Of a stretch of 64,000 nucleotides of DNA, positions 3,771-64,000 are shown piece by piece (positions within the stretch are counted from its first letter, which is position 1; every line of letters begins with the position of its first letter). Below the pieces are notes generated by a model. The model saw only the letters and a program-made list of their open reading frames with translations, ran no database searches and had not been told where the DNA came from. A program made the position numbers and the translations under genes. The DNA comes from a virus, in IMG/VR virus record IMGVR_UViG_3300032770_000018, positions 1 to 64,000 of that record; one strand, written 5' to 3'.

Positions 3771-3973
3771 GACGGCCTTTTGCTGCGCTCCTCCGATAGA
3801 ATCTGCTCAAACCGCGCGAGCCACTCGTCCATAAACATTCGCTGGCGCTGGAGGCTCTCCTCAAGCTCGCCAACACTTCGGCGCATTGACTCGGCGGCAT
3901 CCCTCATCGCGCAGCCAGCACCTTGGACGTTCTCGGCATCCAGGACGAATGGCTGTTGGTTGGTGAAGCTCAT
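3767..3973 (-). CDS. hypothetical coiled-coil protein
   Basis: Coupled ORF, helical pattern. Confidence 0.55.
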   Translation of the reverse strand: MSFTNQQPFVLDAENVQGAGCAMRDAAESMRRSVGELEESLQRQRMFMDEWLARFEQILSEERSKRPS

Positions 3974-4000
3974 CGGATTGGAAGCGGAGAGGGAAGGTAA

Positions 4001-4249
4001 TCAGTTCTGATCTGGTCGGATAATCCATGTCTCGGATTCCTTCCACTCCCTGTCGGAGATTGGCTCGCGCCGAAACAGCCGACACCAAAGCCGCACCATG
4101 TCCTGCTCTCGGCCCTCTTTGACAATCGCGGTGGAATAGTTTCTTCCGGTGATTGCATCAGCAAGGGTAGCAATGGCCGAATCGGCAAAGAGGCTTCGCC
4201 CTCTCGGAGCCAGTTTGCCAGCCTCAACAACTACGTCCTTCATGGTCAT
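4001..4249 (-). CDS. hypothetical protein
   Basis: ORF in operon orientation. Confidence 0.5.
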   Translation of the reverse strand: MTMKDVVVEAGKLAPRGRSLFADSAIATLADAITGRNYSTAIVKEGREQDMVRLWCRLFRREPISDREWKESETWIIRPDQN

Positions 4250-4261
4250 AAACTCATTCTT

Positions 4262-4700
4262 TCAGATGGCAAGCTTGAGGGGAGGAGCCGAGCGGAAAGC
4301 ACCCCCAGGATGATTCCTGAGAGTGTTCCGCTCTGCCAGACGGTACGCCGTCGGGTTATCGCGTCGCGTTTTCAAACGGTCTCGCCCAATGGTCTGCCAT
4401 TCCGAGGCTAGGCTATTCTCGCAGCCTACCGTTACACCGCGCGGTTTTGGTCCATCGTGGACTACTGGCCGCGCCACATTAAGCGGAGTCGGTCCTGTTG
4501 GTCGCACTCCGCGCCATTCCTTCACCAGCGGGCCGCCTAACGCGATTCCCGGTGGCTACGCGGTTCAGACTGAGAGGAGAAAAAGACCCCGACCGGCTTT
4601 TACACCGTTCGGGGAAGATACCCAGGGGGCCGACACCATGCTCGACGCATGTTCCGAAGGTGTTCAGCGAACGGTGTGTCGGCTGACCCCAGGTCTCTAA
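4262..4700 (+). ncRNA. candidate large structured non-coding RNA (RNA-1)
   Basis: At least 8 consecutive stems; G.U wobbles favour the + strand; loop AACGCGA (4539-45) complements TCGCGTT (4364-70); no credible ORF. Confidence 0.6.
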
Positions 4701-4897
4701 ATTGAGATTTCGATAACATACGTTAAGCAGGCGGCACTCCGCTCGCTGAACGTTGCCAGCTTCGCACCAGGGTGAGGAATGGTCAACAACAAAATTCGCC
4801 ATGCGATCCGCACGCACCATAGGCCAGCGCAGGCGATTGGCCGCCGCGCGGGTCAAAGTGGCTGGAAGCCAGGTCGAAGGCTTGTAGGGCGTTCTGG

Positions 4898-5038
4898 TCA
4901 CTCGTCGGCCTTGGTTCTGACCGCCGGCCCGGTCATCTCGCGGTATTCGTCGCGCCGGCCAGCCCAGTAGCCCCAGCGCCAGACGAATTCGGCGCTGACG
5001 CCAAGGCCGATTAACCAAAGGATTATCAGGATGGTCAT
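4898..5038 (-). CDS. 46-aa membrane peptide (MTILIILWLIGLGVSAEFVWRWGYWAG...)
   Basis: Manual translation; hydrophobic N-terminus; below ORF-track cutoff. Confidence 0.5.
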   Translation of the reverse strand: MTILIILWLIGLGVSAEFVWRWGYWAGRRDEYREMTGPAVRTKADE

Positions 5039-5161
5039 AGGTCAAAGAATCGAGCCGTTAGCGTTTGAGGTGGGAAACAAGTGGGAGTCCGCTGGAAACG
5101 GCTCGGAAATTGGAAAATTGGGTATCGCGTTCACTGATTCACTTTTCACTGTAAGCAACCT

Positions 5162-5413
5162 CTACTCTTTTGACACGGGTGCGTCAACTACTTTCTGTCG
5201 CAGCGCCACGTTTCGCAGGTTGGTCCACACCTTGCCCCGGCCAGGCGCTTGCAGCTCGACCAGGACGTCCGTCCGCCCGTAGCCTCGCCGCACGTCCACG
5301 ATCTTCACCGGGACCTCGACCGGCCCGTGATTGTTCTCGCCCCGCACTTCGATCCGGTAACTGCCTTGTCGGTTCATAAGTTCCTCTCTCAACTGGTTAA
5401 ACGTCTGTTTCAT
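5162..5413 (-). CDS. hypothetical early protein (MKQTFNQLREEL...)
   Basis: VxIxDVRxxYGRxDxLV pattern; ATG follows an intergenic hairpin. Confidence 0.6.
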   Translation of the reverse strand: MKQTFNQLREELMNRQGSYRIEVRGENNHGPVEVPVKIVDVRRGYGRTDVLVELQAPGRGKVWTNLRNVALRQKVVDAPVSKE

Positions 5414-29384: not shown

Positions 29385-30419
29385 ATGAGCGAACCGATCC
29401 ACATAATTAGCCTCGGCGCTGGCGTGCAGTCTTCAACGGATGCTCTGATGGCCAGCGAAGGGGAATCCCCGCCGATGCCGGACTTGGGTTGTTTTGCCGA
29501 CACACAACGGGAGCCCCTGAGTGTTTATCTGTGGCTCTCAAAACTATGTGGCGTACAAGTGCGGTTCCGTCCAAATGGAAGGCCATACGTCGAACCGGGC
29601 GTTTACCACTCTGGCCTTCTTAAATTTCCAGTTCACATTGTCACAAAAGGCGACATCGGAGAAGATGCGCTGCGGGTGAGAAAGCGCAAGGACGGCAATG
29701 GTTCATGGGTGCGCAGTGGAGTTCCTCACTACAGCATCAATGCTGATGGATTAAAAGGCCACGGACCTAGGCAATGCACGTATGATTTCAAAATTATACC
29801 GTTAGAGCAGGAGCAACGCCGATTGATTGGCAAAGACAAGATGAGAGTATGGCGCAAGAGGCACCGATCAGCTTTGAAGGAAATTGCCAAACACGAGAAA
29901 GAACTGTCGGTGTGGAAGCGTGCAAAAAAGGCAGGGTTGCCGCATTCTCCGGTTGCTCCATTAAGACCAGAGGTGGCGTGGGCAGAATGTCAAGCAGACC
30001 CGCTTGTCGTGGTCCGTATTGGCATTTCCACAGACGAGGCAGGCCGCGCAAAGCCATCACGGATTCCTTGGGCAGTTCATCGTTGGCCGCATTTAGAGAG
30101 GGGCACGAACCGGGATGGATGCGTCGAATGGTTAGCCGCCCGAAATCTTAAAGCTCCGAAATCAGCTTGCGAATTTTGCCCATACCATGATGACGATGAA
30201 TGGATCAGATTGAGGGATGTCGAACCGGAGAGCTTTGCCCGAGCTGTGCAATTCGATTATGCCTACCGCGCAGCGAAAATAAAAACTGTTTCACAAAAAG
30301 GCTTCAAGCCTTATTTACACAACAGCAGAGTCCCGCTGGACAAGGTTAAATTCCAGAAATTGCAAGGCAAACAACTGACGATGTTTAACAACGAGTGCCA
30401 AGGGATGTGCGGGGTATGA
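29385..30419 (+). CDS. PP-loop PAPS-reductase-like protein #1
   Basis: ISLGAGVQSS, FADT, CTYDFKI, IGISTDE, KSACEFCPYH, ECQGMCGV; more AT-rich; own promoter. Confidence 0.85.
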   Translation: MSEPIHIISLGAGVQSSTDALMASEGESPPMPDLGCFADTQREPLSVYLWLSKLCGVQVRFRPNGRPYVEPGVYHSGLLKFPVHIVTKGDIGEDALRVRKRKDGNGSWVRSGVPHYSINADGLKGHGPRQCTYDFKIIPLEQEQRRLIGKDKMRVWRKRHRSALKEIAKHEKELSVWKRAKKAGLPHSPVAPLRPEVAWAECQADPLVVVRIGISTDEAGRAKPSRIPWAVHRWPHLERGTNRDGCVEWLAARNLKAPKSACEFCPYHDDDEWIRLRDVEPESFARAVQFDYAYRAAKIKTVSQKGFKPYLHNSRVPLDKVKFQKLQGKQLTMFNNECQGMCGV

Positions 30420-59060: not shown

Positions 59061-62000
59061 ATGGCTTTTCTGACACCAGAGGAGATCGACGCGATAGGCG
59101 AAACGCCATCCGGCGCGGCACCACGTTCAATGGAGCGCGTGCTGACGCCCGACCAGATTGACCAAATCGGCCAGGGATCAGCACTCAGAAGCCGTCAAGA
59201 GATCGACACCCGCTCGTTTCAGACGCCCAGCATCGCGTCGCACCAAGCCACTTTCTTTCCCCGACCTGGCCCGACTGCGCCCTCGGGAGTGCCTGTAGAG
59301 CCAATTACGGCGCCCGACATTGCTGGCGGCGCGGCGGAGGCGGTGCAGGAATACCCCAAGAACGTCGGTAAGATCCTGTCCCTCGGGTACGCGGGCGCGG
59401 CTGACGTTACCTCGCAGGCCATGGGGCTGCCAAAGGCCCAGGCGGATGCGACCGGCCAGACCGAGCCTGATAGCTGGGCTAACATCAAGGCTGTTCTCAA
59501 CGAGGAAGACCTGCCGATGGACCAGATAATCAGGCAGACCCCAGGGCTGCCCGGCATGTTGGCCAAGGCTGGCAAAATGTGGTTGGACCTCATCCCGAGA
59601 ATCTATCTGATGCGCGGATTTGGCGCGGCTGGCATGGGGCCGGCAACGGCTGGGGCGCTCGCATTCGGCACGAAACCAACCGGCAGCGGCATTGACCCGG
59701 TTGGCGCGGCGCTGGGCGCGCTGATGCCCGGAGTCCAGGAAGTTGGCCGAACTCTTGGGGGTAGCCTGGCCGATTCGCTGATGCGGCGCGGGCTCATCAA
59801 CGCGGGCGACAAGTTCACACGCAACCTCGTTGAGGAAGTTGGGGGTGTTGGCGCAATCCAAACTCTTAACGAAGCGCTCAATTCGCCGCAGCTTTACCAG
59901 CTTTACCAGCAGGACCCCCATCAGTTCTGGAGCCAGATCGGGGCGGACACTCTTGGAAGCGCGGCGTTCATGCTGGTTGGCGCCCGGGATTGGGCGACGG
60001 GGCCCGGACCGTGGAGCAGCGCCTTTATGCGGGCGGTCGAGAAGACCTACACGCCGGAAGACCTCAAGGACATTTACCTGAGAGTCAACCGCGGGGAAGC
60101 CACCCAGGAAGAGCAGCAGATTGTCCGGTTCATCAACACGAAGGTCAGCAGCCCGGGCGAGGCAATTCGCGGGGGTGCGACCATCCGGACGGAGACCCCG
60201 ATCTTCACCAGCCCATTCTGGCAAAAGTTTTTCGGCCTGGCAGCCAAGGACCCTGAGATCCGGCTGACAGGGGCGCCGGGACAGCAACCGCCGGCCGCGC
60301 CGGCAGCAACAGCGGCACCGCAGCCAAGGCCCGGCGGACGGCCGCTCTTGCTGGGAACAGGAGAGGCAGATGCCACTACTCAAGAGCAGCAGCCAGGAAG
60401 CGTTCCACCGCAACGTGGCGGAACTATACCGCAGCAACCAGGACAAGCCCCCGGAGGAACGGCGGTCGCGCCAGCAGATACTGGCAATCGCCTACCGGGT
60501 GCAGCGGGGAGCCCACCGGGAGGAATCCCAGCGGGCACGCCGCCGACCACGCCAACGCCCGTCCCGCCTGCGCCAAAGCCAGCGGCGGGGGGCAAGCCTC
60601 CGGCGGTAGCGCCCGACTGGAAAACCATCAAGCCCGACGACATTTCGGCAATGCCGGCGGAGACCTTTGGGCCGTGGTACGCGTCGCTCGTGGTAAACCG
60701 GAAGCCTTTGCAGGATCGGCTGGCCAAAGAGGAAACGGCGGACACTCTCGCCCAGCATCTCGCGGCGGCCACCACTGGTGCGGGGCTAGTCCGGCGCATG
60801 GCCGAGGCGGAAACCGATCCCGCCAAGCGGCAGGACTTGATGAACCGCTACCTCGCGGCCACGCAGAAGGTTCAACTGTTCCACGAGGCCCTTGGAATAA
60901 AAAATGGAATAATTGCCAAGGGACCTGCCAAGCCATCTCTGCCAATAAACCCAGCGACCATTGGGCTACCCCAGTGGCGGCAACAGGACCACAACGTCAC
61001 TCGCAGCGGCAAGGACAGCTACTACGTTCCAACCACCGGAGACCGCACACTATGGCCGGGCGTCACCAGCAAGCGCCGGGTGGTGGACATGCAGTATTTC
61101 CTGGAGAAGCTGAAGCGCGGCGAGATCGGCCAGGAAGAATACAACCGACAGATTCAAGGCATCCGGGACAACCCGATGTATGGAAAGCCCGAGCCTGTGC
61201 CGCCACCCGCGGCTCCGAAATGGAAGGACATCGGACCCAACAGCAACGGCGACACCGTCTTTGAGGATGACAACGGTGTCCGATCGATTCTGCGAGGCAG
61301 CGTCAGGGTTACCGAACCGGTGCGGATGATACCAACCCGAGAAGGCGTCCAGACCGCGACCGGAGACCGGACGGGCACGGAGTTTGAGACCGCAACGGAG
61401 GCCAGGAAGCGCACGTCCCCCGAAGCCGGAAACGCTCTCCGCGCCCTCGTCAACAGCGCGGAGAACAACCAGCAAAAGGCTGCGGAGGTTAAGCGGCTGG
61501 CCGATAAAGAGGGCGTCACGGTCAAGCAGATGCAGGAGCGCATCGAGGCCGAGGTGGTGAAGATGGCCAACGAGACTGCGCGACGGCCAGACCTCTCGCC
61601 AAAAGAAAAGTTCCAGGAACTGATCGCCCTCTACAACCGCCAGCCGGTTTTCTCCGCGCGGACCAGCACCAGCGTCGAGAATCAAGCCTACTCGACGCCC
61701 GCGCCAATCGCTTTCGCTACCGGCTACATGGCGGACGTCGGACCATCCTCCAGCCAGTACGACGGCACGGGCGGCAATGGGATGCTCCTCATCGGCGGGG
61801 ACATCGCGCATTCATGGGCCAATGAACTCGACCCCGCGCGGCAGGCGGCGCTCAAGGCGCTGGGTGTCGGAATCGTCACCGGCAACGACGCGACGACCTT
61901 CCGTCCGAACGTGAAATACGATGTAGTGCGGCTCAATCCGCCCTTCGGCTCGATCGGCAACACGCTCTACGACGGGTTTGGCATCAGCAAGCTCGAACAC

Positions 62001-64000
62001 CTGATCGCCCTCAAATCCCTCGAGGCGATGAAGAACGACGGTACCGCCGCGGTAATCCTCGGGGCAACCATGCAGCCGCAGCAGAAGGTGGTCAAAGGCG
62101 CACAGTGGGTTTTCGAGAATTACCTCTATGGCCACTATCACGTTGCCGCAAACTTTGAAGTCTCTGGCGATCTCTACGCCAAGCAGGGAACGAAGTGGCC
62201 GATTCGGGTGATCATCATTGCCGGGCGCCGGGCGACTCCGCTGACGGGCGAGCTGGCGCCGGCGAGCGTGCAACGCCTGGGCATGTTCGACGAACTATGG
62301 ACCCAGGCCGAAAGGACTCACGATGACGTTGTTAGAGCAAAAGAAGCCCTGGTGTCCGGTCGAGAGCCCGGACTACCTGTGCCTGCTGGGGCCAAACCAG
62401 GCCCCGCCAAAGGACAAACTCCGGTTCCTCTTCCTCCAACAGGACCTCCTGGAACTCCTGGTAAAGGAGGCAAGCCACAACGAGGTGGAGGAGGCAAACC
62501 GACGCCTGCTGGAAAACCTACAGGAGGACTTCCTGGTCAACCTCCCGTGCAAGCTCCTGGCGGACCCGGCGGGACCCCACCAACTGCTGTTCAACCCGGC
62601 GCCGGAGGGGACAAAACTGTCGGAGTGGAAGGAGGAACTCCCGGAAAAACTGGCGCTCCCGGAAATGCCCCAGGCGCAGGCGGCGGCGCTGGCAAAGAGC
62701 CTCAGCCTGGAAAGCTTCCTGGCAAGGGTCCTGTAAGGGGCGGCCGAAAGGCTGACGACCTCTCCGGGATGGCCGACGATGAGTTGGATAACCTACTCGA
62801 CGCGGCGGTCCAGGAGAATCAGCCGGCTCCGGCTCAGGCACCGAAAGCGGCGCCGGCGCCGAAGGCATCAACCTCGGGCCAACGCGGCGGCGCGCTTCCC
62901 GGCGGCAAGGCCCAGGCGCCGAAGCCTGCGCCAGCGCCGAAGCTTTCGGACGCAGCCAAAGACGCGGCCAAGGCGTTCGACGAAGGGATGAAAGGCCTTA
63001 ACGACCTCTTCGGAGGCGGAGGGCTGGTTGGTAGTGGGCCAGCGTTCAACGAAGACACCTACCAGAAGGCCAAGGGCCATTTCAAACAGGCATACGACGC
63101 GTTTGTGAGCATGGGTCGCACACTCAAGGAGTTCGTGGCCGAGTGTCTGCGCCGCTGGGGCAATAACGTGCGGGACTACATCCGCCGGTTCATCAAGGAC
63201 ATGCAGGCCGAACAGGAGGCCAAGACGGAGATCGAACCGGGGAAGGCCAACGCCTTGCAGGATGTTTACGAGCCGCGCTCGGAGGCGACGCCGCTGGGAA
63301 CGCTCACTCCGAAGAACATCTCGGTCGGGGAGCACGCGGCGCTCGATGCCCTCAAAGCCCGGGTTGGTTCGCTCGACAACTACGTGGCGGACAAGCTCAA
63401 TATGCAGCCGGACGAGGTGAAACAGGTCCTGGCCGGCGAGCAGGTTGACGGCGTGGCACAGGGGATTAACCAGGTCGAGACCGGAGGGGCGGTCATTATC
63501 GGAGACCAAACGGGTATCGGTAAAGGGCGCCAGGGAGCCGGGATGCTGCGATACGGCATCGTTAATGGAGCGGTCGCCGTGTTCATGACCAAGGACCCGA
63601 AGCTCTTCTCAGACATGCACGGGGACCTTGCGGACATCCACACGCAGATCCGTCCATTCATCATGGGCAGTCCGGCAAAGGCCAGCATCGTCGGCAGGGA
63701 CGGCCAGGTGATCCACCGTGCTCCCGGGCTTGAGGTCCAGCGGCGCGAAATGGCACGCATTCTCCAGGGCGGCTGGGCCAACAGTGGCTACAACTGCATC
63801 TTTCTCACCTACTCGCAGGTCAACGATCGGAACGAACGGCAGCAGTTCCTCGAGCGGTTGGCGGCTACCAATCCCACGCTGATCGTGATGGATGAGGCTC
63901 ACGAGGCGGCTGGCGACTCGGGAAGCTCGATGCAGGCGGCATTCATCACCGGCGGTCAGGTCCAGCGCGGGTCGGGGGCGCAGCGGAAGACCATCACGGT
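59061..64000 (+). CDS. large polyvalent DarB-like virion protein: amino-MTase domain + Strawberry-notch SF2 helicase (runs off window end)
   Basis: Same frame at ATG 59061, ENQAYSTPAP (61677), YDGTGGNGML, NPPFG, GDQTGIGKGRQ (63501), TYSQ, MDEAH. Confidence 0.85.
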   Translation, partial: MAFLTPEEIDAIGETPSGAAPRSMERVLTPDQIDQIGQGSALRSRQEIDTRSFQTPSIASHQATFFPRPGPTAPSGVPVEPITAPDIAGGAAEAVQEYPKNVGKILSLGYAGAADVTSQAMGLPKAQADATGQTEPDSWANIKAVLNEEDLPMDQIIRQTPGLPGMLAKAGKMWLDLIPRIYLMRGFGAAGMGPATAGALAFGTKPTGSGIDPVGAALGALMPGVQEVGRTLGGSLADSLMRRGLINAGDKFTRNLVEEVGGVGAIQTLNEALNSPQLYQLYQQDPHQFWSQIGADTLGSAAFMLVGARDWATGPGPWSSAFMRAVEKTYTPEDLKDIYLRVNRGEATQEEQQIVRFINTKVSSPGEAIRGGATIRTETPIFTSPFWQKFFGLAAKDPEIRLTGAPGQQPPAAPAATAAPQPRPGGRPLLLGTGEADATTQEQQPGSVPPQRGGTIPQQPGQAPGGTAVAPADTGNRLPGAAGSPPGGIPAGTPPTTPTPVPPAPKPAAGGKPPAVAPDWKTIKPDDISAMPAETFGPWYASLVVNRKPLQDRLAKEETADTLAQHLAAATTGAGLVRRMAEAETDPAKRQDLMNRYLAATQKVQLFHEALGIKNGIIAKGPAKPSLPINPATIGLPQWRQQDHNVTRSGKDSYYVPTTGDRTLWPGVTSKRRVVDMQYFLEKLKRGEIGQEEYNRQIQGIRDNPMYGKPEPVPPPAAPKWKDIGPNSNGDTVFEDDNGVRSILRGSVRVTEPVRMIPTREGVQTATGDRTGTEFETATEARKRTSPEAGNALRALVNSAENNQQKAAEVKRLADKEGVTVKQMQERIEAEVVKMANETARRPDLSPKEKFQELIALYNRQPVFSARTSTSVENQAYSTPAPIAFATGYMADVGPSSSQYDGTGGNGMLLIGGDIAHSWANELDPARQAALKALGVGIVTGNDATTFRPNVKYDVVRLNPPFGSIGNTLYDGFGISKLEHLIALKSLEAMKNDGTAAVILGATMQPQQKVVKGAQWVFENYLYGHYHVAANFEVSGDLYAKQGTKWPIRVIIIAGRRATPLTGELAPASVQRLGMFDELWTQAERTHDDVVRAKEALVSGREPGLPVPAGAKPGPAKGQTPVPLPPTGPPGTPGKGGKPQRGGGGKPTPAGKPTGGLPGQPPVQAPGGPGGTPPTAVQPGAGGDKTVGVEGGTPGKTGAPGNAPGAGGGAGKEPQPGKLPGKGPVRGGRKADDLSGMADDELDNLLDAAVQENQPAPAQAPKAAPAPKASTSGQRGGALPGGKAQAPKPAPAPKLSDAAKDAAKAFDEGMKGLNDLFGGGGLVGSGPAFNEDTYQKAKGHFKQAYDAFVSMGRTLKEFVAECLRRWGNNVRDYIRRFIKDMQAEQEAKTEIEPGKANALQDVYEPRSEATPLGTLTPKNISVGEHAALDALKARVGSLDNYVADKLNMQPDEVKQVLAGEQVDGVAQGINQVETGGAVIIGDQTGIGKGRQGAGMLRYGIVNGAVAVFMTKDPKLFSDMHGDLADIHTQIRPFIMGSPAKASIVGRDGQVIHRAPGLEVQRREMARILQGGWANSGYNCIFLTYSQVNDRNERQQFLERLAATNPTLIVMDEAHEAAGDSGSSMQAAFITGGQVQRGSGAQRKTIT
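60370..60609 (+). CDS. nested small basic protein (MPLxKxxSxxAFxxNVxE...QxxAIAY family) in +1 frame
   Basis: Matches a common stand-alone phage small-protein motif; host frame is a low-complexity linker here. Confidence 0.7.
   Translation: MPLLKSSSQEAFHRNVAELYRSNQDKPPEERRSRQQILAIAYRVQRGAHREESQRARRRPRQRPSRLRQSQRRGASLRR
62323..62736 (+). CDS. nested Leu/Glu-rich protein in +1 frame
   Basis: 137 aa with globular helical composition; host frame is a G/P-rich linker. Confidence 0.6.
   Translation: MTLLEQKKPWCPVESPDYLCLLGPNQAPPKDKLRFLFLQQDLLELLVKEASHNEVEEANRRLLENLQEDFLVNLPCKLLADPAGPHQLLFNPAPEGTKLSEWKEELPEKLALPEMPQAQAAALAKSLSLESFLARVL

Follow-up and report, generated by a model that had tools for sequence, protein, structure and literature searches.

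The DNA analysed here (64,000 nucleotides, the window in what follows) is the first 64 kb of IMG/VR virus record IMGVR_UViG_3300032770_000018, which is 78,136 bp long and has direct terminal repeats. The virus is a temperate phage with a tyrosine integrase gene at 852-1808 on the minus strand. Within a run of small minus-strand genes lies a gene-free gap of 648 nt (4250-4897), which extends from the stop codon of gene g46 to the ATG of gene g82. An earlier note had described positions 4262-4700 as a candidate for a densely structured, large phage non-coding RNA (ncRNA), antisense to the early operon. Sequence comparison indicates that the gap is one copy of a family of homologous non-coding elements of 0.45-0.65 kb, represented by five copies in four related uncultured temperate phages of ~75-80 kb: the window phage, G001 (two copies), G005 and G011. 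The parts of the window copy and its two neighbours, all on the minus strand and listed in the direction of that strand, are as follows.

4898-5038, minus strand: upstream neighbour g46, 46 amino acids (aa), one predicted membrane helix; codon score 0.17, G+C fraction at third codon positions 0.81
4250-4897, minus strand: the whole non-coding element, from g46 stop to g82 start, supported by fold z-scores, homology and the lack of a coding frame
4696-4704, minus strand: box CAATTTAGA in the loop of a small hairpin; an identical 9-mer in four of five copies, upstream of the terminator (inside it in G005)
4575-4614, minus strand: intrinsic terminator T1, made up of hairpin 4614-4587, TCTTTTTCTCC and CTGAACC, the last shared between copies
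4372-4574, minus strand: variable middle (domain II) with hairpins 4557-4531, 4512-4483, 4474-4439 and 4430-4406
4418-4406, minus strand: conserved box GAATAGCCTAGCC within domain II
4339-4371, minus strand: conserved block AAACGCGACGCGA...CCGACGG with hairpin P2 (4352-4348/4343-4339), colinear in all copies
4290-4333, minus strand: conserved hairpin P3 (19 bp, one bulge of 2 nt; 3' arm GGGGGTGCT)
4250-4289, minus strand: CU-rich tail GGCTCCTCCCCTC, AAGCTT and a short leader to the g82 ATG; blocks shared among copies
4001-4249, minus strand: downstream neighbour g82, an 82-aa ORFan

Common plan of the element

All copies can be described by one plan, which reads, from 5' to 3', a variable but structured first part with a TTGAC(A/T/C) or TTGCAT box near its edge and with CAATTTAGA, mostly in a hairpin loop, then a terminator, a row of hairpins with a GAATAGYCTRGCC box, and a 3' domain of ~110 nt. 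The 3' domain consists of AAGCGAAGCGA, CCGACGG, P3 with its 3' arm GGGGGYGCT, GCTCGCTC..CTCCC, and AAGCTT. The tandem pentamer GCGAA, in two to three repeats, is also among the conserved blocks.

T1 has the make-up of an intrinsic terminator, a G+C-rich hairpin with a U-run immediately behind it on the strand that would be transcribed. The hairpin is worth -17.9 kcal/mol (z -3.71) on the minus strand of the window versus -15.9 on the plus strand, where no U-run follows; a strict terminator scan missed T1 because of one internal mismatch. At locus L003 (G001 copy 1) the scan did flag an equivalent on the same element strand, and folding revealed further ones at loci L138 (G001 copy 2) and L137, so that four of the five copies have one. 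These terminators are unrelated in sequence, occupy the same place in the copies, and are followed by YGAACC.

Domain II is unconserved apart from the GAATAG box, which is found in four copies and is degenerate in G011. P3 (the central hairpin GAGCGGAA/TTCCGCTC) is at the homologous place in all five copies, with 19-20 bp in the window and G001 and 11-15 bp in G005 and G011. The pairs of P2 are kept in the window and in both G001 copies, three of four are kept in G011, and none in G005. Farther downstream, the GCTCG..CTCCC..AAGCTT blocks are common to the window, G001 and G011, and G005 keeps GCTCGCTC..CCTCCC; the window and G011 also share the last bases before the ATG, the leader GAAAG(GAG)AATGAGT(T)TATG.

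A family of homologous elements

Relatives of the window phage were found by alignment of the g271 protein family (g271 lies 0.7 kb downstream of g82) against IMG/VR, JGI metagenomes and GTDB genomes. The closest relative in IMG/VR, represented by locus L003 (protein 51% identical), has a gap of ~530 nt without coding signal, located 0.5 kb upstream of its g271 homologue. The minus strand of the window matches this gap in four local segments, which are colinear and matched in spacing:

Segment 1: window 4755-4690, L003 4994-5050
Segment 2: window 4622-4562, L003 5120-5175, in both cases the terminator and then YTGAACC
Segment 3: window 4418-4406, L003 5305-5317, 12 of 13 positions identical
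Segment 4: window 4371-4265, L003 5351-5457

The best segment scores 34, versus 24.4 +/- 2.8 in dinucleotide shuffles, of which one in 300 reached that score. The motifs GCGANGCGA..CCGACGG, CGTC, GGGGGYGCT and CTC..AAGCTT were colinear only in the window and L003 among the loci compared then. Four pattern scans of IMG/VR returned dozens of chance matches, and further motifs were present only in the L003 contig and in L111 (genome G011). L111 is 76% identical to L003 over 104 nt (E 3e-10) and shares two more blocks with the 5' part of the window copy, at 4896-4877 and 4777-4752.

We built a covariance model, R2, from L003 and L111 only, leaving the window out. R2 matches the window once (18.4 bits, E 0.074), on the minus strand at 4377-4259, inside the gap and in register. 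Elsewhere, R2 found the second copy of G001, at 29675-29792 (124.7 bits), and the copy in the AT-richer phage G005 (E 0.001). By sequence alignment, the copies colinear with the minus strand of the window are L003 4974-5502, L130 4555-5175, L138 ~1100-1660 and L137 1965-1486 (descending). A further model built from all five copies, R3, gave no additional copy in 13 related virus records, 21 loci from metagenomes or metagenome-assembled genomes (MAGs), and 151 genomes from the phylum to which the only MAG with a g271 relative belongs. Likewise, blastn and nhmmer searches of the gap against the first 31 loci gave no match, and neither the window nor the L003 or L130 copies match GenBank phages. 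A model of the plus-strand domain (R1, 4264-4402) has no match in the relatives. Among sequencing runs, only the probable source DNA run was listed as containing the stretch, and no RNA run. The cassette is absent from the complete or near-complete relatives G002, G008 and G009, and small open reading frames (ORFs) fill its place in G002.

In four of the five copies the element fills the space between a stop codon and the following start codon and has the orientation of the genes on either side. These flanking genes differ at every copy:

Window copy: upstream the 46-aa peptide, downstream the ORFan
G001 copy 1 (L003): upstream DUF6283, downstream RNase H
G005 copy: upstream an ORF, downstream a small ORF and then RNase H
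G011 copy: upstream a gene of unknown function, downstream another such gene

The two copies in G001 are 20 kb apart on the same DNA strand (8.8-9.4 kb and 29.3-29.8 kb), one sense and the other antisense to its neighbours. Identity between them is 98% after T1 (287/293) and 64% before it, a break suggestive of gene conversion or exchange in which T1 was the joint. Copy 2 keeps the full plan, i.e., the 5' box, CAATTTAGA, T1 and domains II and III.

The five copies amount to four independent sequences, too few for covariation to prove an RNA structure. In the model-fitted alignment, 81% of the cells of P2 and P3 together are paired (84% for P3), compared to 25-53% with slid partners. At one pair of P3, the window and G005 have A-U, where G001 has G-C and G011 has G.U; at a second, G005 has A-U and three copies have C-G; at a third, C-G and U.G alternate.

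Folding of the gap

Folding confirms part of what had been read from the letters. All of the stems named in the earlier note are present where it placed them, in particular ATGGCA at 4266 with TGCCAT at 4395, GAGCGGAA at 4290 with TTCCGCTC at 4327, GACGG-TACG-CCGTC at 4340-4353, and the hairpins at 4409-28, 4439-74, 4483-4512, 4587-4614 and 4625-90; only the stem at 4531-57 is no better than its shuffles (z -0.17). The segment 4262-4700 is more stable than shuffled sequences on both strands (z -2.62 plus, -2.49 minus), and the complete gap 4250-4897 more so (z -4.03 plus, -3.94 minus, 20 shuffles each). In a composition-corrected scan of the genome (3120 windows of 150 nt), the gap holds three of the top 15 segments, 4651-4800 plus (rank 1), 4601-4750 plus (rank 12) and 4251-4400 minus (rank 15), and its middle, 4300-4600, is ordinary. 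The z-scores near -4 and the scan ranks place structure above chance ~200 nt past the right edge of the originally described region. Dense structure in 4262-4700 is therefore real, and the boundaries have to be redrawn to those of the element.

Two of the proposed long-range contacts fare less well. The ATGGCA/TGCCAT helix, thought to close a domain, can be found in the window and is not conserved among the copies. The pseudoknot between a loop and a distant complementary stretch does have its seven complementary nucleotides; about six such 7-mer pairs are expected in 440 nt (440 squared / 2 / 4^7), which puts it at chance level, and it is not conserved. We also considered a closing helix of the GCGAAGCGA block with GCTCGCT, predicted for L003 and L130; it does not form in the window copy.

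The element matches none of the RNA families that had been suggested for it (tmRNA, RNase P, group I and II introns, ROOL, GOLLD): Rfam 15 at gathering score has no match anywhere in the 64-kb window, riboswitch and ribozyme families included. At E <= 10 the best hit over 3900-5300 is NsiR1, with 24.3 bits versus the 39 needed, and it corresponds to the terminator hairpin only; at E <= 1 nothing else was found in the five copies.

The working strand

The working strand of the element appears to be the minus strand of the window, i.e., sense to the operon. The earlier assignment to the plus strand is disfavoured by all conserved features that can tell the strands apart. The U-runs after the terminators are on the minus-equivalent strand in the window, L003, L138 and L137. 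The window, L003 and G005 also agree in having the better T1 hairpin energy on this strand; G001 copy 2 departs from them, but its U-run is still on the element strand. P3 is 4-6 kcal/mol better in the sense direction in the three copies compared, with -31.1 (z -6.35) versus -25.3 kcal/mol in the window, and -34.0/-29.8 and -23.0/-18.0 kcal/mol in the two others. The whole element also folds better in the sense direction in L003 (z -5.19 versus -3.30), G011 (z -2.19 versus -0.79) and G005 (-153.5 versus -124.3 kcal/mol).

The argument given for the plus strand had been that several stems rely on G.U pairs that form there only. This is correct for 4436-77 (-23.2 plus, -17.4 minus) and 4480-4515 (-18.2 plus, -15.1 minus), both of which lie in the unconserved middle, whereas the GAGCGGAA hairpin, 4584-4617 and 4622-93 are favoured on the minus strand.

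Absence of a conserved reading frame

Coding in homologs, one of the findings that the earlier note had named as fatal to an RNA, was not observed: none of the frames stays open throughout the copies. Scored for codon usage, with the long genes of the phage as training set, the flanking genes come out positive and all six frames of the gap negative, and the ORFs that cross the gap have no match in Pfam or PHROG. There are long open frames in the GC-rich copies, of 188 and 87 aa in the window and of 178 aa in L003, the latter overlapping the next gene by ATGA. Four copies also have short ORFs with an ATG start and an end in or at T1, and the peptides of the window and G001 copy 2 have M..K.QFR in common. 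The long frames are evidently spurious, because the 76% identical 3' domains of L003 and L111 differ by indels of 1, 1, 2 and 2 nt, the AT-richer G005 copy has stops in all six frames, and the frame of the CAATTTAGA box is not the same in L003 as in the window, whereas in G005 the box comes after the stop. A coding gap, whether for a fast-evolving protein or for a short leader peptide, seems to us extremely improbable.

A leader-peptide attenuator was rejected on similar grounds: the short ORFs do end at T1, but neither their frame nor the peptide is conserved across copies. An attenuator at 4662-4685 was also rejected; alternative pairings exist there, yet the competing hairpin 4695-4625 is far more stable.

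Possible roles of the element

Our preferred interpretation, a tentative one that falls somewhat short of even confidence, is that the gap 4250-4897 may be a cis-acting terminator and leader cassette at the boundary of a transcription unit or module. T1 would stop or attenuate transcripts coming from upstream, and the 3' hairpin with the pyrimidine tail would form the leader of the downstream, integrase-proximal genes, acting in processing or stability and/or in translation control. The cassette could also serve as a recombination joint between gene modules, a role suggested by the conservation of the cassette while its neighbours change, and by analogy with the PeSL (promoter-early stem-loop) cassettes of T4-type phages. 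Several observations weigh against this interpretation. Half a kilobase of structure far exceeds what a terminator and a leader need. G011 has no recognisable T1, and P3 of the window is not followed by a U-run. In P2 and P3, double changes occur in two pairs only, which 55 of 500 shuffles reach, so that the covariation is not significant. The window copy folds equally well on both strands overall. A consensus scan of the element strand detected no sigma-70-type promoter in or next to the window copy, nor in the L003 and L130 copies, though the promoter type of the host may differ from the consensus, and no convincing -10 element accompanies the TTGAC-type box of the 5' edge. Finally, G001 copy 2 is inverted: the minus-strand genes on both sides of it (434 and at least 356 aa) run opposite to it, and there it can neither lead a downstream gene nor terminate the flanking operon.

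The inverted copy, which retains the full plan without any downstream gene on its own strand and so appears independent of its neighbours, is an argument for a close rival, a stand-alone gene for one or two trans-acting ncRNAs on the minus strand, with a promoter of its own. Such a gene might produce a shorter RNA ending at T1 and a read-through RNA of ~0.5 kb ending near P3, with targets in the phage or the host, or a protein partner. We regard this as possible, if doubtful. It is in agreement with the multi-hairpin folds over 0.45-0.65 kb (with the fold z-score of L003 given above), with the TTGAC(A/T/C) or TTGCAT box at each 5' edge, preceded by an A/T-rich stretch in G005 and G001 copy 2, and with the conserved single-stranded blocks (the CAATTTAGA loop, the GAATAG box and the CU-rich tail), which resemble recognition sites. 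The absence of a promoter from the scan results and of a convincing -10 element counts against this rival too, and the TTGACC boxes of the window may not mark a start, because block 4896-4877, homologous to the interior of the G011 copy, is upstream of both. Most of the length is unconserved in sequence, and the covariation does not reach significance. The 3' end adjoins the next start codon in four of five copies, with the leader partly shared with G011, and this arrangement suits a leader better than a separate gene. If the element is a gene after all, it could represent a new family of autonomously transcribed, large (0.45-0.65 kb) structured ncRNAs of temperate phages, context-independent and mobile by recombination; its conserved 3' domain would then be the functional core, and it would be similar in size, and unrelated, to ROOL and GOLLD. 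We regard such a family, too, as possible, if doubtful.

The remaining explanations seem less probable still. The elements could act at the level of DNA, as module linkers or clusters of protein-binding sites (of operator, origin or attachment type), or be neutral spacers or decaying remnants, their hairpins having no RNA function beyond an ordinary terminator. We think this improbable. The conserved blocks are indeed short primary-sequence motifs, including GCGAA, set between unconserved stretches; the orientation to neighbours is not fixed, the distribution among relatives is sporadic, gene conversion in G001 stops exactly after T1, and the two strands of the window copy fold equally well. 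On the other hand, the G.U pairs of P3 work on one strand only in each copy, and one position varies as A-U/G-C/G.U; four copies keep terminators in the same position although their sequences are unrelated; no iterons or inverted terminal repeats were found, and the likely attachment region is elsewhere, next to the integrase. A large plus-strand ncRNA antisense to the early operon, as proposed in the earlier note, is highly unlikely. The window copy by itself folds equally well or slightly better on the plus strand (-278.4 versus -269.3 kcal/mol for the whole gap; z -3.14 versus -1.88 for 4570-4900), the first rank in the genome scan went to a plus-strand segment, two stems are plus-favoured, and G001 copy 2 is antisense to its neighbours, yet the element strand of that copy is the equivalent of window minus. 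Against the plus strand stand P3, which is better on the minus-equivalent strand in every copy tested, the U-runs after T1, found on that strand only, the better minus-equivalent folds of L003, G011 and G005, and the location of the plus-favoured stems in the unconserved middle; the scan of the window copy found no plus-strand promoter or terminator. What stands of a large phage ncRNA as first proposed is a region that is non-coding, unusually structured and conserved; the strand, the extent and the pseudoknot have been replaced or dropped.

Three more specific candidates were set aside. An attachment site or replication origin is disfavoured, as no iterons or arm-type repeats were found and the GC skew turns near 8.8 kb. 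A decayed paralogue of g82 is suggested only by 71% identity over 21 nt, which is chance level. A type I toxin-antitoxin system, with the membrane-type g46 peptide as the toxin, seems unlikely: it would call for an antisense RNA with a promoter and terminator of its own, and the scan found neither on the plus strand. In addition, the conserved features favour the minus strand, and no membrane-type peptide adjoins the element in G011, G005 or G001 copy 2.

Very little of the regulatory and RNA repertoire of uncultured temperate phages has been mapped, and what was a cluster of hairpins is now a family with boundaries, a strand, boxes and a model. If the boundary cassette is the right interpretation, then promoter/terminator linkers that drive module shuffling extend to temperate phages, in the form of a much larger element; if the RNA is autonomous, it is a new class of large phage ncRNA. 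The strand and extent given in the earlier note are corrected under either reading. The parts to be mapped are the 3' end at T1 (near 4575-4586), P3 (4333-4290) and the CU-rich tail.

Comparison with known systems

PeSL cassettes of T4-type phages are ~100 bp long, include a strong sigma-70 promoter and occur in dozens of copies (PMC2839356, PMC4122927). By analogy, they would be the closest described thing in function. Like a PeSL, the element of the window has a stem-loop terminator (T1) and spans from a stop codon (4898) to an ATG (4249) in a hypervariable, ORFan-rich region; flanks differ between copies, a genome may have more than one copy, and the copies are plausible sites of homologous exchange. 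Unlike a PeSL, it is 450-650 nt long (648 here), occurs once or twice per genome (one copy here, two in G001), resides in a temperate phage, and has no recognisable promoter. A long structured interior, a conserved 3' domain and the one inverted copy are further differences, and there is no sequence relation.

In lambdoid phages, the tL terminators and the PR'-6S RNA-tR' region are conserved regulatory stretches followed by variable genes. The resemblance is in the intrinsic terminator inside a temperate-phage operon, upstream of integrase-proximal or late genes. The element differs in that no nut/boxA/boxB, put or qut-like features and no antiterminator gene were identified here, and in that it is found 3-4 kb into the operon and not beside the promoter.

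RNase III processing hairpins are found between the cistrons of T7 early mRNA and in the lambda N leader. P3 is similar in having ~20 bp (19-20 in the window and G001) directly 5' of a cistron on the mRNA strand. It is shorter in G005 and G011, and the conserved flanking blocks have no counterpart.

ROOL and GOLLD are large ornate RNAs of phages and prophages (PMC12286853, PMC5737381). The element shares with them the size class of ~0.5-0.8 kb, the multi-hairpin fold and the location in phage genomes. In contrast, no copy matches their covariance models even at E <= 1-10, and neither conservation over most of the length nor significant covariation is seen.

Neighbouring genes and other observations

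A search for relatives of g82 among 5.8 billion proteins found none except itself. The 271-aa product of g271 has many relatives, the closest of which (57-73% identical) were found in Logan assemblies only. The g271-integrase gene pair is syntenic in relatives, and the region upstream of the pair is hypervariable; the integrases of the window phage and of L003 are only 37% identical. Peptides of 46 aa, with one N-terminal membrane helix and a charged tail, are encoded at corresponding places upstream of the element in both the window (4898-5038) and L003 (4435-4575), and are possibly homologous.

In the whole genome, Shine-Dalgarno-like motifs are found at 7 of 49 confident gene starts. The host probably initiates translation mostly without Shine-Dalgarno pairing, and with so few motifs ribosome-binding sites are no guide to small ORFs here. 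The tandem heptad GTGAANNGTGAA has 10 sites with at most one mismatch, including 5138-5149, versus 3.1 expected, and no shuffle reached 10. The sites are mostly on the gene strand, just 5' of a start codon; the gap contains no site, the closest one being 100 nt upstream of g46.

Comparison of loci L012 (4861-5480) and L011 (726-744), from two close relatives, revealed an insertion of ~620 bp with a minus-strand gene whose N-terminal sequence, MKTIPLTQGKFAIVDDEDFEW, resembles homing endonucleases of the HNH/AP2 type; it is unrelated to the element. At 62852-62940, on the minus strand of the window, ARAGORN predicts an 89-nt tRNA-like gene with an undetermined two-base anticodon, which scores below the Rfam tRNA threshold. 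On the plus strand, a single open frame of ~13.9 kb (~4616 aa) starts at 59061 and runs past the end of the window.

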